Source: Catajapyx aquilonaris (lineage: Eukaryota). From it: DNA of 39,650 bases. The position numbers and the translations under genes are program-made. Below the pieces are notes generated by a model. It saw only the letters and a list, made by a program, of their open reading frames with translations. It was not told the DNA's origin and made no database searches. This document shows positions 5,916 to 39,325 of the stretch, piece by piece. Numbering within the stretch: the stretch's first letter is position 1; every line of letters starts with the position of its first letter. Where the stretch lies: the NCBI GenBank assembly GCA_000934665.2, contig JYFJ02003652.1, forward strand, positions 1-39,650, given 5' to 3'.

Positions 5916-8900
5916 AGATGCTCGTTTGTTCCTGGTCACCCTTCCGCTTGGGCCAGGATGTGGTTCATTTGATGGGTCAGCTGCAGCCGATGGCATGGAT
6001 TCATCCCCATCAGGTTCAGTGCCACTGGAAACTTCTGAAGCAGCACCCTAGGGTAATAAATAATAGTGTGGCCTTAGATATCGTCATACAAAATCACTTC
6101 CGAAGTCCCAGTTACACCACTTTCCACTTCCAGAATCCCCCATCCGTGAACTAAGTCCAAATTCAGAGTTCTATTCACTTATCAATTGTAATGGTTTTAC
6201 ATTCAAACTGTACTTCTGAGATACGTAAAAAAATATACAGGGAGTAAATGAATTCAAATGACAAACTTCTAGGGGTGATAGAGGGGACCAAGACACACAT
6301 TGTTCACATAGGAACCCGTGTCCAGAAACGCCATCTAGAGGGGGTTCATAGACAAGGAACAGTGCACACAGACGCTTCAGGTTGGTGGCGTTAGCGAGCG
6401 GACCGTTTAGTTGCTAGGTGCCGGGCGGATTGTACACAACTTTGCATTTCGCCATAACCTGGCAACAACAGAGTTGTTGTTTATTATCTGCGTGCTACCC
6501 AAAGAGTTCTGCTATATTATATATACACCTAGAGGAGGTACTCGGCCTGAAATGTGAGGCAGGCAACAATGCATGCAACAATATGACCTTCAACAAGATG
6601 GCGGACGCCTGACCTTATTGAACTAATTGTCGCCCAGTTGTCATTATTGGTTGTTGTCCCAGTTGCTAGACAACTGTTAGAACAACAATATGACCTTCAA
6701 CAAGATGGCGGCTGCCTCAGCCTGTCTAATGGAAAAGTATAGGGAGTACCTCCTCTAGGTATTATATTATATAATAGCAGAACTCTTTGGTGCTACCTAG
6801 CATGCTGACTTTACTTGCTAGGTGGCTCTGTTGTTGCCAGGTTATGGTGAATTGCAAAGCTGTGTAAATCCACCCGCCACCTAGCAACTAAACGGTCCGC
6901 TCATTAGCGCCTCCCGCGTGACACGTCTGAGCGCACCCGTTCCTTGTCTATGAACCCCCTCTAGACGGTGTTTCTGGACACGGGTTCCTATGTCAAATAT
7001 GTTTGTCTTGGCCCCCTCTATTACCCCTACAAGTTTGTTGGCTGAATTCATTTACACCCTGTATAAGTAAACATTGTTCATTTTGCTTCAACATTTGTGT
7101 CAGTACCAAATTGATACGGAAAAATGTCTGGTATTCTTCCCATACCACAGTGTTTTGCCTGCTCCCAAGTTCTGCATCTTGATGCGAGTCTCCCTCATCA
7201 AGTGTGGAGCATTGGGGATCTTCTTCAGGTTGGTCATGGCCACATGTTGAGGCTGCTTCTCCACCTGCAAAAATGCAATGACATTAAACTGTACTTCTGC
7301 AAAAAAAAATCTCTATATTTTCAAAGATTGCCCTTCCCCCCTTCCTTCTAAATGGGGAGGAGGCAGTTAGAAGGAGATGGGCCAATCACTGCCTTTGATA
7401 TTAAATAACCCGGGCCAACAATAAACGTCTAAGGTGCATTCCTGGGCATCAAGGGAATGCTTTTGGCAGCAGTGCTATTGGGTCCATGCAGTCTAGTTGC
7501 TGAATAAAGACTACATTATACAGTACCATATTCTATGTCAAAGATAAGTCCTACGACTTTACTTTAAAGATAATTAAGATAAACCCTCTGTGCATTCTGA
7601 CAATCATACCTTCATTTGCCAAACTGCCAACTACTGCTTCTGATTTGGACTGAGTCTCATTCAAGGGTACAGCAATTTCACTGATGTTTATGGATGTCCT
7701 GTCTTCTTCGGATTCCCAGTCTTGATTCTACCATTATAGAGGAAAGGACATTACTATTTAACTAACAGTACGTATATTAGCTTTAAGCAAAAACTCTGCA
7801 ATGAAAAATATCGTCGGCCGGGGATCAAAACCTCGTAACTCCATTTATGCGCGAAAATGGACTTACGAGTGAGGTCGTAAGTCCCTTTGCACATGTGACC
7901 ATATTATGGTTAGGTCACGTAAGTGTGTCTAATGTCCAACACTCGACTTATTGTAACCGAGTATCAATAGTGTTCACGCCCAATAATTCCTCTGAGTCAC
8001 GATTGAGCCATTGCATCATTCCCAATTATCACCTGCGTAAAACGTTGCATAACATAACCTTGTACTGCACGCGCCAATATAGGCCTCTCGCTCATCAAGG
8101 ATAGAGTGTCCTCTCCAGTGCAAGCTGACGCAGCATTCCTGTGACAATATGTCAGCCCCGTGCTCGGTACATGCAGCTGCAGAACTGTGGATGCATTCCA
8201 CCACTTCCAGCCTTGAATCACGCCGAGATCAGCACTATTCCTTCCGGGTAGTTTCCTTATAAATAGGGGCGTTTTCCCCCAAGAAAGTGGAGAGAACCCA
8301 GGAGAGAACTGGGGAGAAGGAGAGAGGCACCACACAGAGAGCACCGGAGACGACCGAAGAGCGGACACCATGGTAGGAATTGTTAGCATGAACAGAAAAC
8401 ATTATTTTACTAAATGTTTTTTGTCCCTCCTGTGAAATTTGGCCTTGAGGAGTTACGAGGTTTTGATCCGCCGCCGACGATATGTCATCTGTAGCAACAA
8501 TGGTCAACAGGTTTCACTGCACAATGAAATTATTGTGATGTAAACAATTTTCATTGGTAATCAACAATTATTTCACTTCCACTACAACCAATGAAAAATT
8601 GACTTTACACAGCTGGCATTTGGAAATTTCTGCTCTCATCATGACTGTAAACCAGATTGACATTGACTTCACCACCTCTTTAGAGTTAATTGTGTCATTA
8701 TAATGGTCTTTTACTATTAAACCGAGTAATACCAGTTAGTTTACACCATGGATTTGTACTATGTGTATGTTCCAAAAATATGACTCTGGTGCAACAGAAC
8801 GTCTCATACCCTATTCATATTTGAGCTGGCCATTTCATTTGGCCTAGCCATACCCTATAAATGAGCAATTACAGTCATCCTCACCCAGCAGTTGATCTCT

Positions 8901-9539
8901 TGTGGTCCTTCATTCTCCACCATGACCTCCTCCTCCACCATGCACTGGTCCAGCTCAGTTTCCATGCTGCCCACAGGCACGGAATCTCCATTTTCAACTT
9001 GCGCATCAACTGAACAAGTGAGATCTTCAGAAAGTGAGTTTCCTGGATCATCTGCAGCTGAAGAGGTAAAGCGCATTCCAGTCAAACCCTGACTCTCAGT
9101 CAGCACTCTCGTTCACATGTCACCCACAGAGGGCTTTTACTTGGGAGATGTCATTGGGCATGTCGGTATGAGAAGGTCAGGTTTACGTTCAGAAAGCAAT
9201 ATGAGGGTCCAACTTTTTTACTACTTGCGAGGGGTTACCCTATGGCATACCTGTTCATTATGGAATAATTACATTTGATTTTAATTTGAGAGGGTTGGCA
9301 ACCCTGATTGGAATGCCACCGCCACTTGTCTTACAACAGCGCCTCATGCCGAAGTCCCCCTTCCACTCACCCTCTTCCTCCTCTCCACTTATTCTGCACC
9401 CGCCACACCAGGCCCACTCCTTCAGGGCCCCCACACCATCCTCCAGTGAGTCCAGTCGAGGAAGGATCAGCTCCAGGATAAGACGCTTCACGGACAATGT
9501 TGTCATCTCCATCACCAACTCACTGTCGACTGGGGCCAT
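5916..9539 (-). CDS. ZnF-family paralog G1, 5' part (5 coding exons; acidic/NLS and finger exons not in window)
   Basis: Exons 9539-9371 (MAPVDSEL...WAWCGGC...EEEE), 9057-8885, 7727-7610, 7264-7146 and 6047-5916. All have AG/GT boundaries, compatible phases (1,0,1,0,0) and no stops, and all are homologous to G2/G3 exons. Intron homology to G2/G4 resumes at 4759-4820 and 1817-1992, so the next exon should lie left of position 1. Confidence 0.8.
6238..7061. mobile_element. Tc1/mariner-type foldback MITE with long TIRs
   Basis: TA-CAGGG(A/T)GTAAATGAATTCA at both ends; imperfect inverted arms of about 240 bp. Confidence 0.85.
6500..6789. mobile_element. P- or hAT-type MITE nested in 6238-7061
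   Basis: TIR CAAAGAGTTCTGCTAT with 8-bp TSD GTGCTACC; internal direct repeat caacaatatgaccttcaacaagatggcgg twice. Confidence 0.75.
7809..8482. mobile_element. Unclassified TIR element in a G1 intron
   Basis: TIRs of about 34 bp (TATCGTCGGC...GGATCAAAACCTCGTAACTCC). The paralogous empty site in G3 reads gaaaaa|tgtcatc (about 33661-33673). Confidence 0.8.
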
Positions 9540-9680: not shown

Positions 9681-10459
9681 GTTGGATTCAGGTGTGGGGG
9701 GGGAGAATGTCGCGTAGCTGTTGGGCCCAAGGAAAGCAGCGACCGTGAAGAACTAATACGGAACGGATAGCACTGAAGTTGTGCTGAACCTCATCAACTC
9801 AAATCAAGTTCCAAATTATAAAGTGGGCCATGATTTCAGCTGCGCAGGGGGCTCCAGGCCTCAGTGTGACATCATGGATGGCTATGGTCATCCAATGGGA
9901 GTTTAGCTTTTCAATTGGTTCACTAAAAAGTTGGGATTATTATTCTGATTACCTGATTACCTTTTTCACCCCCTTCATAATCCACCATATGAGAATAATG
10001 TGTCAAAATCTGTAAACCCTAATTATTTTGTATTACTATATTACAATATGTACAGTGCACTTGAAGATTTCTCTACCCCAATCTCGAAAAAAGGGTATAG
10101 GTCTCCTCTAGCAGCATATTTATTTTTTCCTGTAAGGCACGCATGATCATCTGTCCAATGGCTTGATAACTAGACAGTACTATTGGAACAGGGTACATAA
10201 CCATTAACCAATATGTGCAGTATCATTCTGTCAGTACAGTACATCGTCATGATAAGGGTCTCATCTCAAGTGAACAGGTTACAAATCAGGTAGGCCTATA
10301 GTAAAAATTCTGTATGGATATGCCTTCTTGCAACAGAGCAGGTGACAAATCGGGTAATGAGGTGTGTATTTCCCTCCAATTATGATTTACATCACTGTGT
10401 GCAATCTTAAATCCCCTACAAACCAAAACTTATATTATCAACCAAACCCCCTTCCCCGT

Positions 10460-11200
10460 CCCTTCCCCTTTTGGTTGAACAGTTTCACACATGTTACATT
10501 TACATAGGTTTCTCTCATGTGTGAATTAGTATGTATGTCTTTGCAGGTCAGGTGAATGGTTTCAATCCCTTGTGAAGCCAAGCATGATAGCCGTAACTAC
10601 AACTTGAAACAACAACAACAAACAAACAAAAAACTCGGCACACTTTGCACTAGAATGACTTTTCTCCTCTGTGAATCTTTCTGCCTTCAGCAGGAAAATA
10701 CTCCGACTAACTTTTATAAACAAGTTCTGATCCATGGTTCAAGAAGTCTGATCCACCAAAATCAGAATCTCATCTTCGAACCGCAGCAAGCAGCAAATTC
10801 CAAGAAACTTTCCACAGCCGTGGCCGGGTGTAGCACTCAAACATTTTTGTTCAGGCGCATTTTTAGCATCAACAATTAAATTTTTAAACTATTAACTGCA
10901 AAAGGTTCTGGTTTTAAATTATTTCATTACATTTTGCCTGGGGATAAACTGGTGAGAGTTGTGAATTATACACTTTTGAACCAGGAAAACTACTGGACAT
11001 CAACTTGATTCTCTATTTGAATGAGAGGAGATTCAGATGAAATTGTGAGACTGTGAAATAATTAGTCGCCAATTTGACAAATAGACGAAGAATACAACTG
11101 AAATATTATCATTTCTGCAATGCAAAGTTGCAAATAAGGCTATTTTTTAGATTTCATATTTCAGTAGTGATTCATCCTCTCAAATCTCGACTTATTCCCC
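10460..11200 (-). pseudogene. Decayed zinc-finger exon and intron remnant of an older paralog
   Basis: Minus strand reads RKIHRGEKSF*CKVC...YHAWLHKGLKPF...LIHT*EKP...CNMC...FNQKG (about 10683-10465). Sequence at 10696-10925 resembles the last intron of G2 (13150-13370). Boundaries are approximate. Confidence 0.7.
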
Positions 11201-11795
11201 ACTGCCTCTCGCATCATTATTAACAGTACCAAAAGATATTTTACTCCAGATTGTGTAACTTAGTTATTGATTAATTTGTTATAAATTATCGCTTAATTTT
11301 GTTCATACTGAGGTATCATGTTATGCAGTGTTTCACTTAATATTCCTTACCAAACCTGTAATTCTCATGCAATATGATACCCCGGATAAATCTCATTATT
11401 GTGTACGCCTTCATATACCGGTACATACGTCATTTAAGCAACAATCACTTTGTCCAAACAAAAGCTGACAGAAGGGCAAATTCGCAACAATAATATCATT
11501 GATGCATAAGTAGTTCATGCATATGCCCCATGAGCACTGTCCCGCTCCGCTCTATTTTACTTATATGGCATTCTCTTTTTTCTAGAGCAGTTTGCAGGTT
11601 TCTTTTGGCTCCGGTGTAAAATTCTGAAAATGTCAGTCCTTTTGTTATATGCATGACGAAATTATTGTGCTGAACCTCAACTCAACTCAATTCCAAACTC
11701 AAATGAGCCACGATTTCAACTGTATAGGTGGGTCTATCTTGGTATTTTTTTTTTCAATTTCGTTTTTTTAAATAATATGCAACTCTGTGCCTTGC

Positions 11796-12506
11796 CTAAT
11801 GGACTAATTTCATGTGGCGGTGCATGGAGCGTTTGTTGTTGAACTGTTTCCCACAAGTGCTGCATTCAAAAGGCTTCTCACCCGAGTGAATTAACATGTG
11901 CTGGTGTAAGGTTCCAGACCGACCAAATCTTTTCCCACAAGTGCTACATTCAAAAGACTTCTCACCAGAGTGAATTAACATGTGAGAGTGTAAGTGTGCT
12001 GACTGAACAAATCTATTGCCACAAATGGTGCAGTGAAATGGTTTCAATCCCTTGTGAATCCGAACATGAAGGTGGTACTGAGAACTTGAAGGAAAACATT
12101 TTTCGCACCATTCGCACTGGAAGGGCCTTTCTCCTGTGTGACTCCTCCTGTGAATAACCACGTAAGACTTCCTAACAAATTTCTTGTCACACATGTCACA
12201 TGAGTAAGGCCTCACACCAAGATGGACATCCTTGCAATGCCTTTGTAACCCCCACTTTGAAGTGTACCTCTTATCACAATCACTGCATGGGTAAGGCCCA
12301 CCATCAGATCTGAGTCTTTCATGGCCAGTCAACTTCTGCTTCACTTGAGTAGTGTGTACTGATCCTGGCTTCTTCTTGTTTTCTGTCTTTTCCCCTGGTT
12401 TCTTTTTCAAGCCCACACACAATTCATCTGCAGTTGTACCATCCATATGGAAGTCTCCAGTGGTTCTCGAAGTATTTGTTTCAGTTGATTGCATATTGCA
12501 GTTACC
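11796..12506 (-). CDS. G2 terminal exon: six C2H2 zinc fingers
   Basis: ORF 11796..12494 has six C-x2-C...H-x3/4-H units with GEKP/GERP-type linkers. The acceptor tttaaaag|GGT at 12506 is conserved in G3 and G4. Confidence 0.95.
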   Translation of the reverse strand, partial: GNCNMQSTETNTSRTTGDFHMDGTTADELCVGLKKKPGEKTENKKKPGSVHTTQVKQKLTGHERLRSDGGPYPCSDCDKRYTSKWGLQRHCKDVHLGVRPYSCDMCDKKFVRKSYVVIHRRSHTGERPFQCEWCEKCFPSSSQYHLHVRIHKGLKPFHCTICGNRFVQSAHLHSHMLIHSGEKSFECSTCGKRFGRSGTLHQHMLIHSGEKPFECSTCGKQFNNKRSMHRHMKLVH

Positions 12507-15500
12507 CTTTTAAAAAACTCCACATTACTACTGAACAAAATTAAACACACACTAGGAAAACCCCTCGCTACACTCGCATTTTCCTAGAAAACCACTCACT
12601 TCGTTTGCTCTTTTCTAGGCCTGCGGCCTGGGGTATCTACTCGCGTACCACATCACCAGGGGAGGGTGTAACGTTAGAACTGCAGCAGTCTTTGAACGGC
12701 ACGATTAGTGAGATATGTCTGTGCTGTGTCTGTCATTCCGAAGAGTGAGACTCTGTCAAAGGACTCTGTAAACAACTTCACAGCAGTGCCAACTGGGCAA
12801 CAGCGCAGAGAAGGAATGGACAGTTTCCCCAGCAACCCAACAGAGGAGTTGTTTACATATCTTTGTACATGAGTAGAAGGCAGGCGAATGGGGAGGTGGC
12901 GGCAACAATATGCGGCGGACCAATCAGAGGGCTTGGTCAAACACCGCAAGGATTTTAATATGATAGATTCTAAACTGTATTAGTGTTGTTCATTGATCCA
13001 ATCATGGCAAGCAAAATCAAAATGGAAATCTGGACCTTCACACCACCACAGCTCAAAGGCAATCTTGAATCAAGTAGGATCAAGTAGGATTTTTTGCCAG
13101 ATTTTTAGACCCAAACTTGTTTTTTGAGTGGAATGTCCCTTTAAGACAGAAAATACTCCCACCGAAACGGTCTCAGGATAATTATGTTCAGGTCTGATCT
13201 GCCAAAATCAGCAGCTCATCTTTGAACAGTGGGACACTCCAATATTATTACAAAACAGGAGCCACATGATGGACAGTTGTAGAATTCATACATTTGCACT
13301 TATTGGGCTCTCTTTCAGTTAAATTTTTCAACTTTCAACTGTGAAGCCATTGCCTTTTAACTATTGGACAGCATTTCCCAAGGTATTTTAGTGAGCGAGT
13401 TCACAATCAGTGTTGACTATGAACACAGCTGATGTTTCATGGGTTGATCTGGTGATCTGGTTTTGCCACATTTTCACCCCTGCAATGCTCATCTTCCTCT
13501 CCCTTCCATTCTCGCCTCAGATATGTGAATCACAAACTGCATTAGGAGTCAGAAGTAACTCACCCTTCCCCTAAAGACAAATAACTGCAACCTTAAATGA
13601 CCCCTAATTAATTTCGCATAGCTTACCTTTTCTCTTGGTTTCTTCCTCTTCCTCTTCAAGAGAGCACATGTCTTGTCATCTGAGCGACTAGGAGGAATGT
13701 ACTCATCCCCAGAGTCACTCAGATCAGATAAGGACTGCTCACTGTAGTCTTTGTCCTCATAAACAGGAACCTGCAACACGAAAAATCAGTGATAATGAGT
13801 ATCTAAATCCACTCAATCCTTTGCTACTGGTGATGGACTAGGGATGTGCATATTAAGTACTTAATGACCCACATAAATTTATATAAATAAAATCCCACAT
13901 AATTACTTATCGTGGCAATAATAATTAGGCTTCGGTGCAGTTTAGCCCCACAAAAATCTTGCATATTTCTGTATATTTTTTGAATAAGCTTCATGAGCGG
14001 AGTCTAAAATGATACTCTTCCTAGTGTGCGGAAATGCTTGGTTCAAAAGTAATTGAATTTTGAAGTTGCAAGTAATAACAATGAATGAAATGAAAGTAAA
14101 CAAGTGTTCCTTTGTTGAAAACTGTCCACTCCCATTGCAGCGGGAGGTGATTCTCCGTGGAAACGTGTGAGTTGCCCCGGCAATGTGCTGTGAGGGATGC
14201 TGAGTGATGTAAATAAATGGTTGTTTGTCTGGAATTGGGCAAGCCAGGGGTTAACCACTCGACTGTAAAGTGTACACTGGAGTACCAAGGAGAACCCAGG
14301 AGTACCAAAGAGTATAAGGTACCTATAATGAGTACCTGGGAGTACCATCGCACTTCAGGTGTACACCAGAGTACTAAGCCTTCCTAGAAATAAGGAGGGT
14401 GGATGGTGTCTCATCGGCCATTGATGCTCGAGGTCTCTTCCACGCCAACAATACTGTTGCAGTAAAATGCATATTAAGCTTTTCGTAAATTACTCAAGGC
14501 ATGCCCCACGCTGATTGTGTTGGTGTTATATGTGTTATATGTTGAAAAATAAATGCAAGTTTAGCTATGCGGCCAAAAAATGTCCTCTTCACTGTTGAAA
14601 ATGGAAACAATTTTTTTTTTTTTTTTCACTCACAGACGCTCGTTTGTTCCTGGTCACCCTTCTGCTTGGGCCAGGAGATGACTCACTGGATGGATCAGAT
14701 GGAGTAGGCGGCATGGGTTCATCCGCATCAGGTTCACATCCACTGGAGACTTCTGAAGCAGCACCCTAGGGCAGTAAAATAATAGTGTGGCCTAAGATAT
14801 CATGATAAAACATTACTTCCAAAGGCCCAATTACACTACCCTCCACCCCCAGAATCCCCCACCCAGGAAGTCAGTCCAACATCTGTCAATTCTGGTTGCT
14901 TTATATTCAAATTGTACTCATGAGATGCAAAAAATACACATATGGCAATCCATCAAAGCAGGTTGTAATGATTAAGGGCAAAGTCGGGAACTAATTCTCT
15001 TTACCACATAAAAAATCAGTCCCAATTTGTTTTGACTCGCCCTGGTATATTGCAATGAATGCGGAAATATTATGGGTTAATCATTGTGGTGAATATATGG
15101 CAATGCTGCCTCACACTAGATAAGTACAATCAATTGGTGCACATGGAAATGTGTCTGAATGAGAGGAAATTCTACCATGACCTGACTCAGCACCAGTAAT
15201 CTATATTCTTTAGCAAGAGCGTTACACTACAAGAAGTACAAAAACCAAGTTACGGGATATCTAATTCCACTCAATCATTCATTACTATGCATATAAGTGG
15301 CGTGTTAATAAGGCTCCATAGTAGTATAAATACCATCACATATTATCTGCTAACACCTATTTATTTGAGGATCATGATTCAAAGCTAAAGTTGACCACTG
15401 GAATATCCATGTGAACGGACAGCCATCCCAGAGCTCCTCTTATCACACTCTTGATAGTTTCCTTTCCAAATAATAATAAAATTTACCCTACCTCAGTATT

Positions 15501-17362
15501 TTGCACGTGCCAGTGTTCTGCTTCCTGATGTGATGAGTCTCCCCTGTCCGGTGTGGATAGTCCAGGAGAATCTTCCGAGAGGACATCGCCAGATGTGAAA
15601 GCTGCTTCTCCACCTGGCAGAAATGTGATGGAAATATGCTATAGGTCTTAAAATATTTACTTTAATCATAAACCCTGCACTCCCAAGAACTTTCACTTGG
15701 ATATTACAGAATGTTGTAAGTTCCATTTACCCTTAACTAAATTGCTTAGGTTTGGGAAATAATACTGCTGTGTTAAGTGGAAGTGTTAAAGTGTACAAGG
15801 CACACAAATTGCCAATGGTAAAACTTCTTGCATCACACTACTATCCGTTTATTTAATGTAGAGCCCTATGTTTGACTCTAAACAACTCCCAGGAAAATTT
15901 GTATTGTTAGAAAGCTTGTTTAAATCCACGTTACATATATGCGAGTAGTTTTCCTATTGTCAGTCTCTAATTTTTTATCGTAAATAGAAGGCGGAAAAGT
16001 GTCATTTTTTGACAAGTTGCCGACATTACACCGCAAAGTGAATTTTTAATTCGATGCAATGCCCTAAACTGGGGTCAGATTGTGCCAGGTGGGGGTGAGT
16101 TGGATATTATGAATGTCTGTTTCTTTGCACACTCGACAGTGTTTTTTTCGCAGTCCTCTGACGATTGTAGGCCCATGATAAGGAATGGAAAAATGTAGGA
16201 CTAGAGGCCGGAGCACACGGAAAACGATATACAGGGGTTGGACAGAATAATAGGGCCATCGATGATGCCTGAGACGTCACTCATTTGACAAGGCAGGCAA
16301 AAGTCTCATTTTCTATAGATTGGGCAGACCCCGGAGTGAAAAGAAAAGGTACCAGGTGGGGGGAACCCTAGAAGGCAAGGAGAGGGTCCAAAGAGAGGTA
16401 GTGGTTGAAGTGTTGGGGGACTGGACTTGTGGTTTGTGGCGGTTGGTGTGAAGGTAAAAGTAGCCGGCAATCAGTTTCGTAGACTGTCACCAGCGGACGC
16501 TACAGTGGTCGTCAACACCAGCGCAACTTGCGAAAATTTGAGTAAGTAGGCCCACTATGCTAGTCTGTTAATTGTGATAATGCCAGACATGCATGAGCAT
16601 GCCCACTTTATATGGATGGGCAACTCAAATGTGATGCACACAATCCAAACGTGAAATGTAGTATTACCATGCAAAAACATTAGGGTCAGTCCTCTACCTC
16701 TGAAGATTTCTTGAGCTGATTGCCCCACTGCAACTTTTGAGATTTAAATTCTGCATTGTTTACAACAGAAGGCTTCAATAAGATATGCATACATAGATTG
16801 TTCATTATGTGAATGACAAACTTCTAGGATACAATCCTAGGCATCAGGGAAAGCAGACTTTGAGTAAAGGTGATATCTGCTCCATGCAATCCTGTTACTG
16901 AAATAATCAAAATGACATAAACACTGCCTTATTCCATATTCTGGATGTCATAGACAGTGAGTAGCCAATTACTTTTCCAGCGCCTAACTTATATTGCCTT
17001 CTAATCCTATTGGGAGAAGTTTGGGAGGCAAATACAATAAAAAATCCTCTGCAAAACAAAATCATACCTGTGTTTCCCAAGCTGTCAACTTCTGCAACTG
17101 AATCTGACTGAATCTCACTCAAGGAGGCAGCAATTTCACTGATGTTTCTCAATGCGCCATCATTTTCTGCTTCTAAGTCTTGATTCTACCATCACAGGGG
17201 ATAATATGAGCATTAGACAAGCAGTTTTTACAACGAAAAATTTGCTATCTGTTGTAACACTGATCAACATGTTGACATATGAACTAAATTAAAATGTTTC
17301 AAAATAAAACTATAAACTACCCGTCCCACCTTCCACCCCCAACCCTGCCCATGTCAGACTAT

Positions 17363-17398
<36 letters not shown>

Positions 17399-17451
17399 AA
17401 TATTATATTATATTATTATGTATTTACTAATAATACTAATAATACTAATAC

Positions 17452-17507: not shown

Positions 17508-20500
17508 GGCAATGGTTACATTCCCTTTGGGGTATATTGCACAGACCTTTATTGACGGTTTCTATGTACAGCATTGTACATCAGAACTTTTGTATGAAGG
17601 GCCCCGGCCCAAGGACAGGGTGACTGGGAGGGGATGTGCAAGGTGCAGTGCAATGTCGTTGCTTTGGTCATTTTGTGAACTCCCCAGTGTGGTTAGTCTA
17701 GCAGAAATCCCACGCGAGGTGAAACCACAGACTATGCAACTCTGCACAAGGTGAAGGGGAGAAATATTGGGCTTGGGATCGAACCCGGGAACAGTACATC
17801 TGTGGGTACATATTTACAATTGTATGTACTGCTGCACCACTCTGCCTCCCCTACAATTATTTCAATACATATATCGTCGCTGTGGAGTCAAAACCGCGTA
17901 ACTCTCTTTTCGGCAGATTTCGGGTTTTTGATTCTGAAAATCGGGCATTTTGCGCTGCATCTGCCATCAAATCGGCGTAATGCTTTGCTCAATAGGAGCG
18001 AAGATATGGGCAGGTTTAAAGATTAAATCTCAATGCAAGTGTAATATTTGTATTCAGTTTTTTAGTGTTCAGCACAGTAACTGTGCTGAACACTAGGTTG
18101 TGCTAGAGGTTGTGCTGGTTTTAAAAATTTGGCTATTTACACCATCATCATCACTGTCATAGCCCTTAAATTCTTCGTCTCTCTATTTCATTTGACCCCC
18201 AGACCAAATGAATTAGACATTTCAACCTCACCCAACTGTCAATTCCTTGTCCTTCATCCTCCACCATCACCTCCTCTGTCTTGCACTGGTCCAATTCAAC
18301 TTTTGTGCAGCCCACAGGCACGGAATGTCCAGTTTCAACATGAGCATTGCCTGAAGTGAGAGCTTCAGGAGGTATGTTGCCTGGAATGTCATCAGGAACT
18401 GAAAAGGGAAAGAGCATTCCAGTCTCTCTGACCCTCAGGAATCTCATTTACTTGGCAAGTACACATGTCCCAAACAGAATAGATATTGACATAATACTAT
18501 AATAACAGACTTTTCCGTCCAACTCATCATCATAAGTCGTAACTACCCCTGGTTTTTCTTCAATACGAGTTGTGAAAAGAACAGCATGGTGGCATAAGCA
18601 TAGTTTTAAAGGGACAGTACACCACAGCCATACAGTTCTACTGCCAGAGTTCAATCTCTGAGTGGAGCAGATAATACTGTATAGTCACATGGGAAGAGCT
18701 ATGAGGACTTCTCTCTGTGCACATTTTCTCTGATTATTCTCATTGCCTCCTACAAGCAAAATTCATCATCATGCTTAACGCTTCAAGGTAAGAACCCTCC
18801 AAGTTAGTCGTAAATAAGACTCTCACGTGACACAGAATCAAGATTCCAGCTCTTTCTGCAACAGCCGTAATCTGAGACGGTTGGAAGCCCTGTTTGTGGG
18901 CACCTCCCCTACAACCCAAAAATGCAAGTCCCCAATTCACCATGTCCTGATCCACACCCTTTGGACCCAACAAATGGCCTAGGGAATATCACAAAATGCG
19001 AAGTTAAAACCCTGAGTATAGGACCTTAACTGTAACACTTTGCCTGCTACATCCAATTCGGTGGCATCTTTAAATTGCAGGGTTACGCCCAAAATTTAAT
19101 CAAAATGATTAGGTAATGCACAGGAATGCATTCAAGCAGGGATATTTTAAACATTACGCTTGAAGATAACGCTCTCATCAGTAAGGAGGGTTAAGTGGCA
19201 AAATGACATCTCTACATGAAGTGACCCTCTGTACCACAGCAGTTCACCCTGGGCGTTTGTCAGTTATGATGTCAATGATGATAAAACCTGTGTGCGTGCC
19301 AACCATACCTGTTTTTGCCAAACTGCCAACTTTGACATCTGAATCCGCCTGAATCGCACACAAGAGGGCAGCAGTTTCACTCATGTTTCTGGCTGTTCTC
19401 TCTTCTTCAGATTCACAGTCTTGATTCTACCATTACAAGGGGAAACACTTTGCTAGTTAACTAACAATATTTTATAATTGCTTTAAACAAACAAAAACTC
19501 TGTAATGAAAAATTTGCCTATCTGTAGTCGCACTGGTCAACATATTAGGTACAGTCAATAAGTTCCCGTCCCTGCAGGCCGGCAGGTGACACGGAGACAG
19601 GTGCTGCTGTGGTTGGCTGTGAGGTACATTAGCAGTCACCAATCTGGCCAAGAGTGAACTCGGTGTGCTGTGTAATAGCTGCGGTACACAGTCGAAAAAT
19701 GTCGTTCACCATATCACGCGCTTCCAAGGCGGATGAACGGGCAGTAACTCAGTTCCTGTGAGCAGAGGGAGCGGGACCGAAGGAGATACATACACGCATG
19801 AGGGCTGTGTATGGAGACACTTTCCAGGCGTACTCGACAGTGAAGGACTGGGTACGCCATTTCCGCAGTGGTCGACAAGGCGCTTGTCCATCAACAGGAT
19901 TGCTGAACAGGCTTGCATCGTTGGAGGCGGTAACAGGTCGGCCTGACCGTGCCATGTCTGACGTGCCTTGTCGACCACTGCGGAAATGGCGTACCCAGTC
20001 CTTCACTGTCGAGTACGCCACGAAAGTGTCTCCATACACAGCCCTCGTGCATGTATGAATCTCCTACGGTCCCGCTCCCTCTCCACACAGGAACTGAATT
20101 ACTGCCTGTTCGTCCGCCTTGGACGCGCGTGATATAGTGAACGACATTTTTCGAATGTGTACCGCAGCTATTACGCAGCACACCGAGTTCACTCTTGGCC
20201 AGATTGGTGACTGCTAATGTACTATATCGCTCAAAAAGATAGAGACGATTGGCATTTGATTCAAGTGCAAGTTGCACTTGAGTCAAATGCAAAATCGTCT
20301 CTATCTTTTTGGGCGATATAGTACCTCACAGCCAACCACAGCAGCACCTGTCTCCGTGTCACCTGCTGGCCTCCAGCCAGCTGGGACGGGAACTTATTGA
20401 CTACACTAATATTTCATTGCACAATGAAATTGGTATGTAAGGAATTTTCATTGGTCATCAACAATGATTTCACTTCCATTGCTAATAATGAAAAATTGAT

Positions 20501-27640: not shown

Positions 27641-28297
27641 TCATTTTCTCTTCATGTGCAACTTTATGCCTTGCCTATGCACTAATTTCATATGGGTATG
27701 CATCTTACCTTTTCGGTTGAAATTTTTCCCACAAGTGCTACATTCAAAAGGCTTCTCACCTGAGTGAATTAACATGTGCTGGTGTAAGTGTGCTGACCGA
27801 CCAAATCTTTTCCCACAAGTGATGCATTCAAAATGCTTCTCACCAGAGTGAATTAACATGTGCCGGTGTAAGTGTCCTCTACGAACAAATCTTTTGCCAC
27901 AAATCGTGCAATGGAATGGTTTCAATCCTGTGTGACTCCTCCTGTGAAGAACCATGTGAAACTTACAAACAAATTTCTTGTCACACATATCACATGAGTA
28001 AGGCCTAACACCAAGATGGACATCCTTGCAATGCCTTTGTAACCCCCACTTTGAAGTGTACCTCTTATCACAATCACTGCATGGGTAAGGTCCACCATCA
28101 GATCTGAGTCTTTCATGGCCAGTCAACTTCTGCTTTACTTGAGTGTGGACTGATCCTGGCTTCTTCTTGTTTGCTGTCTTTTCCCTTGGTTTCTTTTTCA
28201 AGCCCACACACAAATTATCTGAAGTTGCATCATTCCTATGGAAGTCTCCAGTGGTTCTCGAAGTATTTGTTTCAGCTGATTGCATATTGCAGTTACT
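27641..28297 (-). CDS. G3 terminal exon: five C2H2 fingers (frame open; third finger of G2/G4 deleted in frame)
   Basis: ORF 27641..28339. HRRSHTG joins directly to LKPFHC, so the 28-aa finger present in G2 and G4 is missing. Confidence 0.85.
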   Translation of the reverse strand, partial: SNCNMQSAETNTSRTTGDFHRNDATSDNLCVGLKKKPREKTANKKKPGSVHTQVKQKLTGHERLRSDGGPYPCSDCDKRYTSKWGLQRHCKDVHLGVRPYSCDMCDKKFVCKFHMVLHRRSHTGLKPFHCTICGKRFVRRGHLHRHMLIHSGEKHFECITCGKRFGRSAHLHQHMLIHSGEKPFECSTCGKNFNRKGKMHTHMKLVHRQGIKLHMKRK

Positions 28298-28988: not shown

Positions 28989-30095
28989 AAAGCACTTGGG
29001 CTCTCAATCAGTTAAATTTTTCAACTTTCAACTGTGAAGCCATTGGCTTTTAACTATTGGTCAGCATTTGCGAATGGATTTTAGTACATAGTGAGCTAGT
29101 TCACAATCAATAGTGTTCACTATGAACACAGCTGATGACGTTTTATGGGTTTATCTGGCGGTTATCTGGTTTTGCCACATTTTCACATATATGTAATGCT
29201 CATCTTCCTCTCCCTCCCACTCTCGCCTCATAAATATGTGAATCACGAACTGCCTTAGGAGTCAGAAATAACATACCCTTCCCCTAAAGACAAATTGCAA
29301 CCTCAAATGGCCCCTAATTAATTTGGCAACACCTACCTTCCCTCTTCGATTCTTCCTCTTCCGCTTCAATACAGCACAGGTCTTATCATCTGAGTGACTT
29401 GCAGGAATATACTCATCCCCCGAGTCACTAAGATCAGAAAAGGACTGCTCACTGTCCTCTTTGTCCTCATAAACAGGAGCCTGCAACATGTAGAATCAAT
29501 CATAGAGAGGATCTAAATCCACACAATCCTATGCTACCATACTGTCCATCCTGTAGCCCTGTCAGGCATTGTACGTCGCCCATGCATGATAATTTTAGTT
29601 AAAGAGGATCGCTAGCGGAGCTAGGCCCTTATTGGGAGTTTTGAATTCTCAATATTTACCGCACTGTCTGTCTTGTGGAGCCGCAGGCCAATGAACGTTT
29701 GCCACATCCACATCACGCAACACCCACATCTACTCCGCCACAAGGCGAACAGTAATGCTGGGAACACACAACCCCCAAATTACTTGTAAAATTGCCATGT
29801 ACTACATTGCATTCCCTCAAGAATGGGAGTAACTGTTTCAACAAAGGAACAGCTAGTTGTTTATTTTCATTTATTGATTGTTATTACTTGCAATTTCAAA
29901 ATTCAATTCCTCTTGAACCAAACATTTCCGAACACTAGGAATCAGGACCGGCGCAACACACTTAGCGCGCTAAGCATGGCACGGGCGCGCCGAAGAAAAA
30001 TGGAAAGCCACTGCGCCAGGCGTAGAGCACTGCATATTTACTTCTGAAAGTTAACCTGCAATGTTAATTTATGTCATGATGATTGAAAACACAGA

Positions 30096-31301: not shown

Positions 31302-31594
31302 GCATAGGCCTATATCTCGTAAATTATTGGCAAAATAGAATAGATCACTAATATTTTAATATTTAAAAAAGAATGCAAGTTTCGGAAAGTAGCCAAAAAA
31401 TGTCGTCCTCACTGTTGAAAATGGAAAACATTTACTTTTTCTCAACATAACATTACTCACAGATGCTCTTTTGTTCCTGGGCAAGGAGATGGCTCACTTG
31501 ATGGGTCAGCTGCAGCAGATGGCATGGATTCATCCCCATCAGGTTCAGTGCCACTTTAGACTTCTGAAGCAGCACCCTAGGGCAGTACATAATA

Positions 31595-32265: not shown

Positions 32266-33829
32266 TATGCAATTCGGAAGAAAAAGATGGGATTATAAAC
32301 TAGTTTTTTGGCACTTAGGGCGTCAGACATGTCCCTCTTCAATATATATTATCTACTGAGACTAATAGTTGTGGATCATGATTCAATGCTACAACTGACC
32401 AATGCACTATCCATACGGAGGGACAGCCATTCCACAGATCCCGTATCATACTTGATAGTTTCCTTTCAAATATAATGAAATTTCTCCTACCTCAATATTT
32501 TGCAAATTCGAGTGTTCTGCTTCCTGCTGTGAGTCTCCCCTGTCCAGTGTGGATGGTCCAGGAGAATCTTCTGAGAGGACATCTCTGGAAGTGGACGCTG
32601 CTTCTCCATCTGCAGAAATGTGATGGAAATGTACTCTAATTCTTAAAATGTATGAGTTATAAATAAGAGGAGATATCCTAAACCCTGCACTCCCAAGAAC
32701 CTTCACTAGGATATTACAGAATGTTGTAAATATACTTAGGCTGAGTTCATACTAGGCGTTTTCGTCGCCCGACAAGTCGCTGAAAACAGAACACATGCAA
32801 AAGTACGGAGCACGACACACCATGACTACTTTCCTGCTTGGTTGCCGCCAAATGCAGCATGTTGCATTTTTGCTGCCGTGACTGAATGTACAGCCGGAAA
32901 CAGAACACATGGTTACCAGTACGCGCAGACACACCAGGCGATAAAATCGCGTGAAAAGTGAGCTGTGGGGAGTGGACTCGGGTTGCAGGGCTGCAGGGCT
33001 GCAGGGGAAGCATACTGGCATCTGGGACTAGCCTGAAGCCACTATGGTGTTTAAAGCCAATCTTTTATAGAAACTGTAGGTTTTACAGGGTCCTTTTTAT
33101 GGAAAAAAAATTCGTTTTTTAGTACTTTTTCGTCTATTTTTGCGGAACAGTGTAAGGGCTTTAAAAAAAATCGTTTAGCGTAATTGGCTCTTTAGAGACC
33201 CTACAATCAAGGAATAATAGTAGAACTTTCCTACGCAACCCTAGTACATGTGTGCAAAAGCCTAATCTTGGGTAAAATCGCGTTATTTCGTATTTTTGGT
33301 GATTTGACTTTTCGATTCCTGGGCTTTAAAATAAGTTTTTCAGTCAAATAATGGAAAATCTGGTGGGCATCACAATAATTATATTCTACCTGTGTTTGCC
33401 ATACTGCCATCCTCTGTGTCTGAATCAGATTGAATCTCACTCAAGTGGGCAGCAATTTCAATGCTGTTTGTGGATGATCCGGTTTCTGCTTCCAAGTCCT
33501 GATTCTACCATCACAGAGGAAAAAGTATTACTCTTCAGCTAACAATATTTCACATCTGCATAAGTAAACATTGTTCATTTGGCTTCAACAGTCTTGATTC
33601 TACCATTATATTATAGGAAAGGACATTACCATTATTAAGGTTAAACAAAAACTCTGGATTGAAAAATGTCATCTGTAGCAACACTGGTCAGCTTAATATT
33701 TCATTGCACAATGAAATTGTTATGTAAGTAATTTTCATTGGTCATCAGCAATCATTATTTCACAACCACTGCTAATAATGGAAAATTGACTTTACACAGA
33801 CACTGGCATTTGCAAATTTCTGCTCTCGA

Positions 33830-34413: not shown

Positions 34414-35349
34414 TTAGTTTACAGCATGGATATGTACTATGTTTATGTTCCTAAATATGACTCGGTTGCACCATAACGTCTCATACCCCTTAGATATTTC
34501 ATATTTGAGCTCGCAAATTCATTTGACCTAGCCATTCCCTATGAACGAGTAACTTCAGTCATTCTCACCCAGCAGTTGATCTCTTGTGGTCCTTCATTCT
34601 CCGCTATGACCTCCTCCTCCTCCTCCACCTGGTCCAGCTCAGTTTCGATGCTGTCCACAGGCACAGATTCTCCATTTTCAACTTGAGCATCAACTGAACA
34701 AGTGAGATCTTCAGAAGGTGAGTTCCCTGGATCATCTGCAGCTGAAGAGGTAAAGCACATTCCAGTCAAACCCTGACTCTCAGTCAGCACTCTCGTTCAC
34801 ATGTCACCCACAGAGGGCTTTTACATGGGATATATGGGAATGGTTGGTCATGGAGCATGTCAGCATGGGAAGGTCAGGTATGTTCAGAGAGCAACATGAC
34901 GGTCCAACTTTTTCACTATGGCGAGAGGTATACCCTGTAGCTCGTTAGGGAATAATTACATGTGATTTTAATTTGAGAGGGTTGGCAGCCCTGATTGGAA
35001 AGCGACCACGTCTTGTCTTACAACAACAGCGCCTCATGTCGAAATCCCCCTTTTAAAAAATGCACGTCCCCCTTCAACTCACCCTCTTCCTCCTCTTCAC
35101 TTATTCTGCAGCCACCACACCAGGCCCTTGCACCAGGCCCACTCCTTCAGGGCGCCCACGCCATCCTCCAGTGCCTCCAGTCGAGGCAAGATCAGCTCCA
35201 GGAGACGCTTCACGGTCAAGACTGTCTCCATCATCAGCTCCAGGTCCACGGGGGCCATGATGGCTCCCACCCCTTTCGACTCCTCTCTGCAACCCTGTTC
35301 CACCCACAATCCGGACCAACAAACGTCCACGAAACGTCTCAAGCAGGAC

Positions 35350-36376: not shown

Positions 36377-37252
36377 CTAATGCATTAATTTCATATGGCG
36401 TTGCAAGTAAGCTTTCTGGTTGAAATTTTTCCCACAAGTGCTACATTGAAAAGGCTTCTCACCTGAGTGAATTAACATATGCCGGTGCATGTCTCGTGAG
36501 TGACGAAATCTTTTCCCACAAGTGCTACATTGAAAAGGCTTCTCACCTGAGTGAATTAACATGTGCTGGTGTAAGGTTCCTGACAATGAAAATCTTTTCC
36601 CACAAGTGCTACATTCAAAAGGCTTCTCACCAGAGTGAATTAACATGTGCTGGTGTAAGTGTCCTGACCGACCAAATCTCTTGCCACAAGTGCTACATTC
36701 AAAAGGCTTCTCACCTGAGTGAAGTAACATGTGCCGGCGTAAGGTTCCTGACCGACCAAATCTTTTCCCACAAGTGGTGCAGTGAAATGGTTTCAATCCT
36801 TTGTGAATCCGAACATGACGGTGGTAAACAGAACTTGAAGAAAAACATTTTTCACACCATTTGCACTTGAATGGCCTTTCTCCTGTGTGACTCCTCCTGT
36901 GAACAACCATGTGAGACTTCCCAGCAAATTTCTTGTCACACATGTCACATGAGTAAGGCCTCACACCAAGATGGACATCCTTGAAATGCCTTTGTAAAGC
37001 CCCCTTTGTAGTATACCGCTTATCACAATCACTGCATGGGTAAGGCCCACCATCAGATCTGGGTCTTTCATGACTAGTCAACTTCTGCTTCACTTGAGTG
37101 TGTACTGATCCTGACTTCTTCTTGTTAGCTGTCTTTTCCCTTGCTTTCTTTTTCAAGCCCACACACAAATCATCTGAAGATGCAGCATCCATATGGAAGT
37201 CTCCAGTGGTTCTCGATGTATTTGTTTCAGCTGATTGCACATTGCAGTTGCC
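36377..37252 (-). CDS. G4 terminal exon: eight C2H2 zinc fingers
   Basis: ORF 36377..37240 has eight C2H2 units. Fingers 4-8 form a near-identical 84-nt tandem repeat. Confidence 0.95.
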   Translation of the reverse strand, partial: GNCNVQSAETNTSRTTGDFHMDAASSDDLCVGLKKKAREKTANKKKSGSVHTQVKQKLTSHERPRSDGGPYPCSDCDKRYTTKGALQRHFKDVHLGVRPYSCDMCDKKFAGKSHMVVHRRSHTGERPFKCKWCEKCFSSSSVYHRHVRIHKGLKPFHCTTCGKRFGRSGTLRRHMLLHSGEKPFECSTCGKRFGRSGHLHQHMLIHSGEKPFECSTCGKRFSLSGTLHQHMLIHSGEKPFQCSTCGKRFRHSRDMHRHMLIHSGEKPFQCSTCGKNFNQKAYLQRHMKLMH

Positions 37253-39325
37253 CTTTGAAAAAATTCAACATTACTACTGCACAAATTAAACACACCATCA
37301 AAAAGTTGTTCAATGATCTAATCATGGCAAACAAAATCAATGGAAATCTGGACCTTCACACCACCGCAGCTCAAAGACAATCTTGAATCAAGTGGTAGCT
37401 TAATCCAGAAAATACTCCCACCAACATAAAATAGGTCTCACAAGGGAAAGTCACGGGGTGATAATGACGAATCTTGATGAAATTTAACATGCTAATACAG
37501 GACAATATATTATGACACCCAAAAATGAAATATTTCGTGCGGAACCCCATCGCTTTCATCGCTTTATCGCTTTCATCGCTGACCACCCCTCATAGGGAAA
37601 TGTCGTGATGTTGTTGTTGTTGTTGTTGGAACCCCATATTTGCAAACGTTATGACGTCTTAAAGTTCTAAAAATAATACATTTTCATACTCCATGGAATT
37701 ACATTAGCAACCACATATAATGACATTGAAGTGTGTAATCAGTTTCTAGACCTTTTCTCATAGGAAAAAGTCCTACAGAACGGTTCTGGCCGTCCATCCG
37801 TGGCCGTCTGTGGACAGGTATCAAGGCCTAAACCGTAAGAGATAGCGACAAACGTTTTTCATATTCGGATTGAGCGCGACCAAAATAGGTTTCCTGGTCA
37901 ACTTCTGGTGACCCGCCACTTCCGGTCTTCCGGGTTCACTCTATCCGCACAAGTCTACTTTATGGGCAGGTTATCGTTGGATTTCGATGTTAGTTTCCGT
38001 GTATTCCTGACCGTGTTTTTCGAGGATTTATTCCGGGTTGTACCTCATGTGAGCGTGATTTGATGAGACCTTTTCTCATTCTTTCAGGGAGCATGTGAAT
38101 CGATATATCGTAACCTAGGCAACATATCGATTCCAGTATCGGCTTGGGCGATAACATCTTGGCAGCCGATGACGCTCATTGCAAATATGTCCAACTTCAG
38201 GAATAAATTCCACAGCCCCTGTGCCAGAGAGTCAGGTAAAACCCGGAGTAAATCCCCGAAAAACACGGTCAGGAATACACGGAAACTATAACTTAGAAAT
38301 CCAACGATAACCCCTCCCGTAAAGTAGACTTGTGCGGATAGAGTGAACCCGGAATAGACCGGAAGTGGCGGGTCACCAGAAGTTGATCATGAAACCTATT
38401 TTGGTCACGCTCAATCCGAATATGAAAACCGTTTGTCGCTATCTCTTACGGTTTAGGCCTTGATACCTGTCCACAGACGGCCACGGACGGACGACCAGAA
38501 CCGTTCTGTATCACTTTTTTCCGACATCTGAGAAAAGGTCTAGAAACTGATTACACACTTCAATGTCATTATATGTGGTCGCTAATGGAATCCCATGGAG
38601 TATGGAAATGTATTATTTTAGGAAATTTAAGACGTCATAATTTTTGCAAATATGGGGTTCCGCACGAAATATTTCATTTTTGGGTATCATATATTGTCCT
38701 GTATTAGCATGTTAAATTTCATCAAGATCCGTCATTATCACCCCGTGACCTTCCCTTGTCAGCATAATTATGTTCAAGTCTGATCTGCCAAAATCAGCAG
38801 CTCATCTTTGAACAGCGGTACACCCAAAATTCCAAGAGAACAGCCACATGATGGACAGGTGTAGAAGACATACATTTCCACTTGTTGGGCTCTCTTTCAG
38901 TTAAATATTTCAACTTTCAACTGTGAAGCCATTGGCCTTTAACTATTGGACAGCATTTGCCTAGGTATTTTAGTCAGCTAGGTCACAATCAGTGTTGACT
39001 ATGAACACAGCTGATAATGTTTTATGGGTTGATCTGGTTATCCGGTTTTGCCACATTCCATCTTCTTCCCTCTCATCACCTCAGATATGTGAACCACGAA
39101 CTGCCTTAGGTGTCAGAAATAACTCACCCATCCCCTAAAGACAAATTGCAACCTTAAATGGCTCCTAATTAATTTGGCAAAACCCACCTTTCCTCTTCGA
39201 TTCTTCCTCTTCAAGACAGCACAGGCCTTGTCATCTGAGCGACTTGGAGGAATATACTCATCCCCAGAGTCACTCAAATCAGAAAAGGACTGATCATGGT
39301 CCTCCTTGTCCTCATAAACAGGAGT
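36377..39325 (-). CDS. ZnF-family paralog G4, 3' part (acidic/NLS exon plus terminal exon)
   Basis: Exons 39325-39188 (TPVYEDK...KRKNRRGK, 138 nt) and 37252-36377. Both junctions are phase 0 and canonical. Upstream exons lie beyond the window. Confidence 0.85.
37441..38758. mobile_element. 1.3-kb foldback element with about 500-bp TIRs and 3-bp TSD
   Basis: CAAGGGAA(A/G)GTCACGGGGTGATAATGACG inverted at both ends; TSD TCA. The empty site ggtcTCAggataatt is in G2 at about 13169-13183. Confidence 0.9.
37551..37627 (+). mobile_element. Extremely 5'-truncated RTE insertion
   Basis: Matches the 3' end of the LINE at about 25896-25947; (GTT)n tail; 10-bp TSD GGAACCCCAT. Confidence 0.85.

Follow-up and report, generated by a model that had tools for sequence, protein, structure and literature searches.

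A 39,650-nucleotide stretch of the Catajapyx aquilonaris genome (contig JYFJ02003652.1; hereafter the window) was found to carry a cluster of zinc-finger genes, all on the minus strand, in which the base-contacting residues of the fingers have diverged faster than synonymous sites while the framework was conserved. This acceleration at the contact residues of an otherwise conserved finger, together with in-register gain and loss of fingers, is the new result of the analysis. Our main reading, to which we assign a probability of roughly 60%, is that the cluster is a tandem array of young C2H2 zinc-finger transcription factor paralogs subject to birth-and-death evolution, organized as head, linker and fingers in the way first proposed. 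The family is probably a rapidly diversifying group of predicted DNA-binding proteins with an uncatalogued head that probably mediates oligomerisation.

It is well established that animal genomes have repeatedly met changing DNA targets with clusters of rapidly evolving zinc-finger genes. To our knowledge, the effector heads of such families are known in few lineages only (KRAB, SCAN, ZAD and FiNZ), and a new head peptide of about 60 residues would offer a concrete handle on how such families work without KAP1.

Organization of the cluster

Four co-oriented paralogs, designated A to D, and a decayed remnant were located (Table 1), as the sequence-only reading had described: gene C was complete, gene B was disabled, gene A was cut on its 5' side by the window edge, and gene D had no visible 3' part. 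The limits given for the cluster, 5916 and 39325, proved to be exact exon ends (gene D exon 5 and gene A exon 6). The gene models also bore out the predicted architecture, with the head encoded by exon 1, acidic linker exons, and every finger in one last exon. The presence of one intact gene, one pseudogene and one remnant, together with finger counts of 5, 6 and 8, upheld the postulated birth-and-death pattern.

Table 1. Exons and remnant of the zinc-finger cluster, with positions in the window
Feature	Position	Strand	Remarks
Gene A exon 6	39188..39325	-	upstream exons past window end
Gene A last exon	36377..37252	-	8 fingers; extra internal 84-nt finger units
Gene B exon 1	35083..35258	-	176 nt; 10-nt tandem duplication after W-A-W-C causing frameshift and TGA
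Gene B exon 2	34569..34741	-	
Gene B exon 3	33390..33504	-	115 nt
Gene B exon 4	32491..32609	-	119 nt
Gene B exon 5, disabled	31461..31576	-	TAA at codon 7; 16-nt deletion
Gene B exon 6	29337..29480	-	
Gene B last exon	27641..28297	-	still open, 5 fingers; finger 3 lost in register, leaving hybrid linker
Gene C exon 1	21247..21442	-	196 nt, phase 0 to 1; start codon, heptad helix (predicted), W-A-W-C-G-G-C, acidic tail
Gene C exon 2	20777..20952	-	176 nt, phase 1 to 0, acidic
Gene C exon 3	19309..19426	-	118 nt, phase 0 to 1, acidic
Gene C exon 2'	18232..18398	-	167 nt; diverged internal duplicate of exon 2
Gene C exon 3'	17068..17185	-	118 nt; internal duplicate of exon 3
Gene C exon 4	15492..15613	-	122 nt, phase 1 to 0
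Gene C exon 5	14634..14765	-	132 nt, phase 0 to 0; Ser/Pro/acidic, basic end
Gene C exon 6	13627..13770	-	144 nt, phase 0 to 0; Ser-rich acidic stretch followed by basic K/R cluster
Gene C last exon	11796..12506	-	71 aa before the fingers, then 6 C2H2 fingers and stop codon
Decayed zinc-finger remnant	10446..10682	-	stop codons; between genes C and D; tblastn E 1.1e-5
Gene D exon 1	9368..9539	-	172 nt
Gene D exon 2	8885..9057	-	
Gene D exon 3	7610..7727	-	
Gene D exon 4	7146..7264	-	119 nt, diverged
Gene D exon 5	5916..6047	-	

The nine-exon model suggested for the complete gene assembled as gene C, with a 1884-nt open reading frame encoding 627 residues and six fingers. All of its splice sites were intact (GT-AG at 8 of 8 introns), the phases were compatible, and the splice sites were common to the paralogs. 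Exon 1 of gene C had a 30-nt in-frame insertion relative to the copies in genes B and D, which are the only other exon 1 copies in the window. Exons 2' and 3' together amount to 285 nt, so that the frame is kept; omission of this pair would likewise preserve it. A reading of the two exon 3 copies as mutually exclusive exons was provisionally rejected since all phases fit with exon 2' between them, making the nine-exon reading possible. No AATAAA or ATTAAA was found within 1.5 kb 3' of the stop codon, and conservation over the 200 nt preceding the start codon (78-80%) did not exceed that of intron 1 (82%).

Three disabling lesions were present in gene B, which retains five fingers. Only exon 6 and the finger exon of gene A lay in the window, the 5' part being past its end. 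The five visible exons of gene D (9539-5916) were all open and in phase. A tblastn search (E ≤ 10) of bases 1-5900 found neither exon 6 nor a finger exon for this gene, which consequently either continues past the window edge or is truncated. With gene B dead and gene D perhaps truncated, the cluster may perhaps contain just one or two functional genes.

Turnover and selection in the fingers

The three open finger exons, those of genes A, B and C, contained 19 fingers, and 3 of 3 scored far over the Pfam cut-offs for zf-C2H2 and zf-H2C2_2. The fingers were tandem C-x2-C-x12-H-x3-4-H units joined by TGEKP-like linkers (SGEKP, TGERP or KGLKP), which places them in the C2H2 class. The units had an 84-nt period, and fingers had been gained and lost in register. 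When the whole last exon of gene C was compared with proteins of near its own length, 146 of 200 candidates matched at E ≤ 1e-10; the 120 matches listed were generic zinc-finger proteins from vertebrates, insects and others, with 27-50% identity, and no close family member was among them.

Selection was evaluated over 14 orthologous finger pairs. The dN/dS ratio was 1.50 for the recognition helix (-1 to +6) and 2.55 for the contact positions -1, 2, 3 and 6, as against 0.14 for the framework (0.08-0.21 between paralogs), the counts being small and the paralog pairs non-independent. Amino acid differences occurred at 43 of 98 helix positions versus 16 of 224 in the framework. Between paralogs, strong purifying selection acts on the framework, and change at the base-contacting positions is accelerated, at about two to three times the rate of synonymous sites. 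These results fit the earlier idea of a fast-adapting family like the KRAB-ZFPs.

In the four sequence-distinct fingers alone, the contact dN was 0.60-0.73, the contact-codon dS 0.23-0.35, and the framework dN 0.02-0.06, with the helix differing from the framework in each gene pair (Fisher p 3e-4 to 3e-5). Comparison of contact nonsynonymous with all synonymous changes gave p values of 0.02-0.05 per pair, for small counts and three pairs that are not independent. In the internal fingers, conversion between units could account for some of this signal, but the persistence of the contrast in the distinct-finger subset speaks against it. At the level of predicted base contacts, the signal suggests that the paralogs are being pushed towards different targets, which makes a binding survey worthwhile.

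The head and the linker

The exon 1 head consisted of about 55-65 residues, in which leucines recur in a heptad pattern ahead of W-A-W-C-G-G-C, with one Cys pair, and then an acidic tail. Exon 1 is under purifying selection; its dN/dS between paralogs was 0.21-0.30, and for the three pairs the Fisher p values of the synonymous versus nonsynonymous comparison were 2e-4, 3e-3 and 0.015.

The absence of a recognizable KRAB, ZAD, SCAN or BTB domain was substantiated by Pfam. The six non-finger exon peptides matched no family at cut-off; even at E ≤ 1 they gave just two sub-threshold matches, MYRF_ICA and DUF2155. KRAB (PF01352), ZAD (PF07776), SCAN (PF02023) and BTB (PF00651) gave no match at E ≤ 1 in these six peptides, and KRAB gave none in the three exon 1 open reading frames; the head was ruled out as any of these four domains by these blanks.

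Relatives of exon 1 were sought in several libraries. Among longer proteins there were 189 candidates, 0 at E ≤ 0.01, and a profile built from the three copies, a very shallow alignment, found one protein at E ≤ 0.001 among 1.84 billion representatives. This protein (P0002; 2558 residues, E 3.7e-5) had seven repeated stretches and no Pfam family, and the match was attributed to the composition of a repetitive sequence. The top score in the ESM Atlas was 0.84, under the level at which matches carry meaning, and a sequence search of the PDB gave 0 matches at E ≤ 1. Pattern searches of JGI metagenome contigs yielded 76 candidates with exon 1 and 192 with exon 6, of which tblastn confirmed 0. The main texts of the papers searched contained no description of such a head, nor the strings WAWCGGC, LKEWAWC or MAPVDLEL. 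By sequence comparison, the head is uncatalogued, none of these libraries having yielded a relative. The genes of the window were likewise not returned by these libraries, so the blank searches say little about the spread of the family.

The linker, of about 300 residues, was acidic, Ser/Pro-rich and built from small exons, and is probably disordered. Residues 66-390 of gene C included 71 D/E versus 24 K/R, a net charge of -47, and basic clusters followed; the K/R cluster of exon 6 resembles, and may be, a nuclear localisation signal. The dN/dS of exons 2 and 3 was near 1 between paralogs. The pre-finger part of the last exon, compared with longer proteins, gave 14 candidates, 0 at E ≤ 0.001.

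Possible modes of action

In the mechanism that we propose, 1) the head would form a long amphipathic helix with leucine heptads, ending in W-A-W-C-G-G-C and the acidic tail, 2) the five to eight fingers would bind DNA sequence-specifically, 3) the paralogs would be driven towards differing target sequences, 4) the acidic linker may be an effector or partner-docking part, and 5) the basic K/R clusters may be a nuclear localisation signal, which they resemble. Candidate targets are transposons or satellites, or promoters and insulators.

The KRAB-ZFPs of tetrapods recruit KAP1/TRIM28 and bring about H3K9me3 silencing, often at transposons. The cluster resembles them in its tandem birth and death, in having a putative effector on small 5' exons and the fingers in one last exon, in the gain and loss of fingers in register, and in its fast-changing base-contacting residues, but it has no KRAB domain. 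Insects are reported to have no direct KAP1 orthologue (PMC6444547). The FiNZ-ZNFs of cyprinid fish, about 700 copies in zebrafish, are described as lineage-restricted and adaptively evolving, with a short Glu-rich N-terminal sequence before the fingers that reportedly resembles no known domain (PMC10547256). That sequence has 28 residues and is given as confined to cyprinids, whereas the head described here, compared by description, is a predicted heptad helix of 55-65 residues with a W-A-W-C-G-G-C end (PMC10547256). Hemipteran ZF271-like/APEZ clusters are similar in their tandem groups of 4-8 genes, differing exon structures, disrupted pseudogenes and variable finger arrays; fingers are reportedly the sole domain there (PMC6444547), whereas the genes described here also have a conserved head and linker exons.

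A tentative, less likely alternative is that the proteins are functional analogues of the KRAB-ZFPs and FiNZ-ZNFs, whose fingers would recognise transposons, whose head and linker would recruit silencing, and whose contact residues would turn over in an arms race. The contact residues that outpace synonymous sites, the turnover of the fingers, the birth and death of genes leaving a pseudogene and a remnant, and a short, Glu-rich, matchless head like that reported for FiNZ (PMC10547256) all argue for it, as do the transposon fragments located within and between the cluster genes. The surroundings had been called TE-dense. Their transposon content was real, yet moderate: 2 of the 31 other open reading frames of at least 100 residues were over the Pfam cut-offs for transposon proteins (RVT_1 and mariner Transposase_1), and two more were just under (hAT dimerisation, Mos1 HTH). 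In addition, a tRNA-derived SINE-like element had three copies in the window. However, fragments near a gene are uninformative about its targets, and hemipteran ZF271-like expansions are reported to be uncorrelated with repeat content, their authors noting that they may have arisen otherwise than by an arms race (PMC6444547).

Insulator-binding ZAD-ZnFs are an arthropod alternative to a transposon arms race (PMC12947871). An architectural role of this kind, in which a dimerising head would pair DNA-bound proteins at promoters, insulators or heterochromatin, with lineage-specific duplication and no transposon defence, is likewise conceivable but doubtful. The predicted coiled-coil helix would suit such a role, ZADs are reported to homodimerise (PMC7913770), and many ZAD-ZnFs colocalise with insulator proteins (PMC12947871). 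Like arthropod ZAD-C2H2 genes, those of the cluster have an N-terminal module ahead of the fingers and lie in clusters formed by lineage-specific duplication; their head would probably dimerise as well. The ZAD fold coordinates zinc with two Cys pairs. The head described here is not a ZAD: its plain predicted helix is followed by a single Cys pair, and PF07776 gave no match at E ≤ 1. Conserved architectural sites would not predict acceleration at the contact residues.

The head itself was modelled with AlphaFold2 on a very shallow alignment, three exon 1 copies being available. The gene D exon 1 was predicted as a single helix (residues 6-44, 39 residues; mean pLDDT 76.9) and that of gene C as a hairpin of two helices (6-23 and 30-52; mean pLDDT 73.9). 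The helix would not be stable alone; a coiled coil is most likely, and the proteins would thus be dimers or oligomers, by analogy with the ZAD, SCAN, BTB and DUF3669 heads elsewhere. The DUF3669 head of a subset of KRAB-ZNFs is a comparable extra N-terminal module, reported to oligomerise and contribute to repression (PMC6923878); no sequence relation to it was found (no Pfam match) for the present head, whose oligomerisation is a prediction.

It is unlikely that the helix instead docks onto one partner, or is a leucine-rich signal of the nuclear-export type, with no self-association. Exon 1 abounds in leucine and its hydrophobic residues lie close together, the models show only an isolated helix or a hairpin, and of the 90 Foldseek matches in the PDB 0 reached E ≤ 0.001, all being generic helical hairpins with E values above 1. 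Against this, hydrophobic residues occupied 10 of 12 a/d positions of the best heptad register in gene C, 10 of 12 in gene B and 8 of 12 in gene D, a regular pattern over about 40 residues that exceeds the length of an export signal, and the 10-residue insertion of gene C (7+3) preserves the register, which better suits a coiled coil.

That the cluster is a decaying, unexpressed relic of recent duplicates turning into pseudogenes, with no current function, would accord with the lesions of gene B, the finger remnant, the missing 3' part of gene D, the lack of a canonical poly(A) signal near the gene C stop and the unexceptional upstream conservation, but is very improbable given the framework and exon 1 dN/dS values, which indicate selection since the duplications, the 627-codon frame of gene C intact over nine exons with all splice sites, and the open exons of gene D.

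The tandem array of transcription factor paralogs is compatible with a bolder and rather unlikely extension, that an arthropod lineage invented its own KRAB-like or FiNZ-like system without KAP1 or ZAD. The coiled-coil head and acidic linker would then be the silencing or chromatin-targeting effector, and a transposon or satellite arms race would drive the contact residues. Exon 2 was conserved at the nucleotide level, and a conserved 10-codon upstream open reading frame was observed; if this extension were true, both would indicate tight post-transcriptional control.

Structure of the cluster

The window, with a G+C content of approximately 42%, is eukaryotic DNA. A search for stop-to-stop ORFs gave three minus-strand zinc-finger exons, all open, and three related ORFs in which a start codon was followed by a leucine-rich peptide, and self-comparison showed that the whole region was a tandem array of related units with approximately 75-92% identity. 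Gene models were built by aligning the conserved unit blocks and then listing the open acceptor-donor pairs. The sequence-only reading had described a KRAB-ZFP-like zinc-finger cluster at 5916..39325. Models were rebuilt for the four tandem paralogs, designated genes A to D, and a decayed remnant of fingers, interrupted by stop codons, was located between C and D (10446-10682); these results bore out both the description and the end coordinates. The cluster is real and was accurately described.

Gene C was the one complete gene, with nine predicted exons. All eight introns were GT-AG with compatible phases, and the joined frame of 1884 nt (627 codons) closed at the stop codon of the finger exon. 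The fourth and fifth exons, designated 2' and 3' (17068-18398, minus strand), were an internal duplicate, diverged and in frame, of the exon 2-exon 3 pair; since the two sum to 285 nt, the frame is kept whether they are included or skipped. At the amino acid level, exon 3 of gene B was 64% identical to exon 3' of gene C vs 49% to exon 3, so that the duplication of this module may predate the gene duplications. No AATAAA or ATTAAA was present within 1.5 kb 3' of the gene C stop codon (10296-11795, minus strand); signals of this poly(A) type were found 167-205 nt past the stop codons of genes B and A.

Gene B had the exon set of gene C without the 2'/3' duplicate and is disabled. In exon 1, a tandem duplication of 10 nt caused a frameshift leading to a TGA, and exon 5 had a TAA at codon 7 and a 16-nt deletion, while the finger exon was still open. 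Of gene A, the window took in just exon 6 and the finger exon before ending. Exons 1 to 5 of gene D were present, every one open and in phase; the remaining 5.9 kb of the window yielded neither an exon 6 nor a finger exon. The expected location of these exons (1-5150) had no homology to the other units and contained a weak hAT dimerisation remnant just under the Pfam cut-off (3735-4040, minus strand), which together suggest an insertion or rearrangement.

Coordinates of the gene C exons and of the transposon-related features
Feature	Position	Strand	Remarks
Gene C exon 1	21442-21247	minus	
Gene C exon 2	20952-20777	minus	
Gene C exon 3	19426-19309	minus	
Gene C exon 2'	18398-18232	minus	fourth in order
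Gene C exon 3'	17185-17068	minus	fifth in order
Gene C exon 4	15613-15492	minus	
Gene C exon 5	14765-14634	minus	
Gene C exon 6	13770-13627	minus	
Gene C last exon	12506-11796	minus	fingers
Reverse transcriptase ORF	24657-25769		above Pfam cut-off
Mariner transposase ORF	22509-22814		above Pfam cut-off
Mos1 HTH ORF	19749-20063		gene C intron 2; below Pfam cut-off
~290-bp element, copy 1	5154-5457	plus	copies 88-93% identical
~290-bp element, copy 2	30092-30394	plus	
~290-bp element, copy 3	21788-22076	minus	

Divergence of the fingers

There were six fingers in gene C, five in gene B and eight in gene A. Nucleotide identity set fingers 1, 2, 3 and the last finger apart as distinct: it was 34-66% to the other finger types and 76-100% to their orthologues in the other genes. 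The internal fingers all belonged to one homogeneous class of 84-nt repeats, and this class explains the extra units of gene A. Gene B had lost finger 3 exactly in register.

In 14 orthologous finger pairs, dN/dS was 1.50 for the recognition helix and 2.55 for its four base-contacting positions (-1, 2, 3 and 6), vs 0.14 for the framework. Amino acid differences occurred at 43 of 98 helix positions vs 16 of 224 framework positions. A second test used the distinct fingers alone, among which inter-unit conversion is unlikely. The contact dN was 0.60-0.73, the dS of the contact codons 0.23-0.35 and the framework dN 0.02-0.06. The helix differed from the framework in each gene pair (p 3e-4 to 3e-5), and contact change exceeded synonymous change with p values of 0.02-0.05 per pair. 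Counts were small and the gene pairs non-independent, so diversifying selection acting on DNA specificity is well indicated, not proven. The comparisons give fresh evidence that the paralogs have been driven towards different DNA targets.

The exon 1 head and the linker

Exon 1 encodes an N-terminal head of 55-65 residues with 36 invariant columns over the three copies. Its dN/dS between paralogs was 0.21-0.30, a range indicative of purifying selection. None of the six non-finger exon peptides matched a Pfam family at its cut-off, even at E <= 1, and a PDB sequence search with exon 1 gave no match. The comparison with 1.84 billion representatives returned one match, a weak one to a repetitive protein. 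Nothing was found for exon 1 in a word-indexed protein library, the ESM Atlas or metagenome contigs; since these libraries also failed to return the window's own genes, the blanks identify the head as uncatalogued, without implying restriction to a single species. Assignment of the head as KRAB, ZAD, SCAN or BTB was rejected, the defining test for each having been negative, and the family is a member of none of these.

AlphaFold2, using an alignment of only three sequences, predicted a single helix for the gene D head (residues 6 to 44, mean pLDDT 76.9) and, again from only three sequences, two helices for that of gene C (6-23 and 30-52, mean pLDDT 73.9). In one heptad register, hydrophobic residues occupied 10 of 12 a/d positions in C, 10 of 12 in B and 8 of 12 in D. 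Exon 1 of gene C had a 30-nt in-frame insertion (~21332-21361, minus strand) repeating a 10-residue leucine-rich unit; as 10 residues amount to 7+3, the heptad register was kept. An isolated 39-residue amphipathic helix is unlikely to be stable on its own, so we infer that the head would form a coiled coil, either by self-association or with a helical partner. The head is uncatalogued and probably a coiled coil.

The linker, comprising the small exons between head and fingers, was acidic (71 D/E vs 24 K/R in residues 66-390 of gene C). Basic clusters came after the acidic stretch, where exons 5 and 6 end and where the last exon begins, and could serve as a nuclear localisation signal. The dN/dS of the linker exons ranged from 0.2 to approximately 1.2. 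Exon 2 of gene C and its copies in D (8885-9057) and B (34569-34741) were 92-95% identical vs 82% for intron 1 (p 8e-5 and 2e-3), and despite this high nucleotide identity dN/dS was close to 1, a pattern that looks like nucleotide-level constraint or a gene-conversion tract.

A putative 10-codon upstream ORF with a strong start context was located on the minus strand at 21569 (C), 9680 (D) and 35382 (B), 124-141 nt ahead of the main start codon. It was kept in all three exon 1 copies, the differences including two synonymous and one nonsynonymous.

Related families and the surrounding repeats

The cluster is a lineage-specific clustered zinc-finger family of a known type, whose head is uncatalogued. 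Its design and dynamics are those of tetrapod KRAB-ZFP clusters and cyprinid FiNZ-ZNFs. FiNZ is described as a Glu-rich head of 28 residues that has no known relatives, with positive selection acting on many FiNZ-ZNF genes (PMC10547256). The arthropod ZAD-ZnFs have a dimerising head (PMC7913770), and many of them are described as binding insulators (PMC12947871). In Hemiptera, ZF271-like genes occur in clusters of 4-8 with pseudogenes, and are described as having no extra domain; the authors considered that an arms race was not necessarily the cause (PMC6444547). One crustacean genome is reported to have 699 C2H2 genes (PMC5111886). The present family may work like the KRAB, ZAD, SCAN or BTB families, though it is a member of none. 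Transposon recognition and repression are putative functions, and the transposons in and between the genes carry no information on what the proteins bind.

These transposons were surveyed by comparing the 31 other window ORFs of 100 aa or more with Pfam. Two passed the cut-offs for transposon proteins, and two others, a hAT dimerisation region and a Mos1 HTH, were just below. The ~290-bp element occurred in intron 5 of D, in intron 5 of B and upstream of C. It looks like a tRNA-derived SINE, the 5' part of both plus-strand copies matching the Rfam tRNA model (5164-5235; 30106-30173).

Between C and B, a 160-bp unit was present in three tandem copies with 97% matches (23643-24123), adjoining the mariner and reverse transcriptase fragments. 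Two inverted repeat pairs were also observed, one in the last intron of gene A (37628-38045 and 38234-38661, 91% over ~420 bp) and the other in intron 4 of gene D (6234-6543 and 6744-7065, 81% over ~320 bp), which may be foldback or MITE-like insertions.
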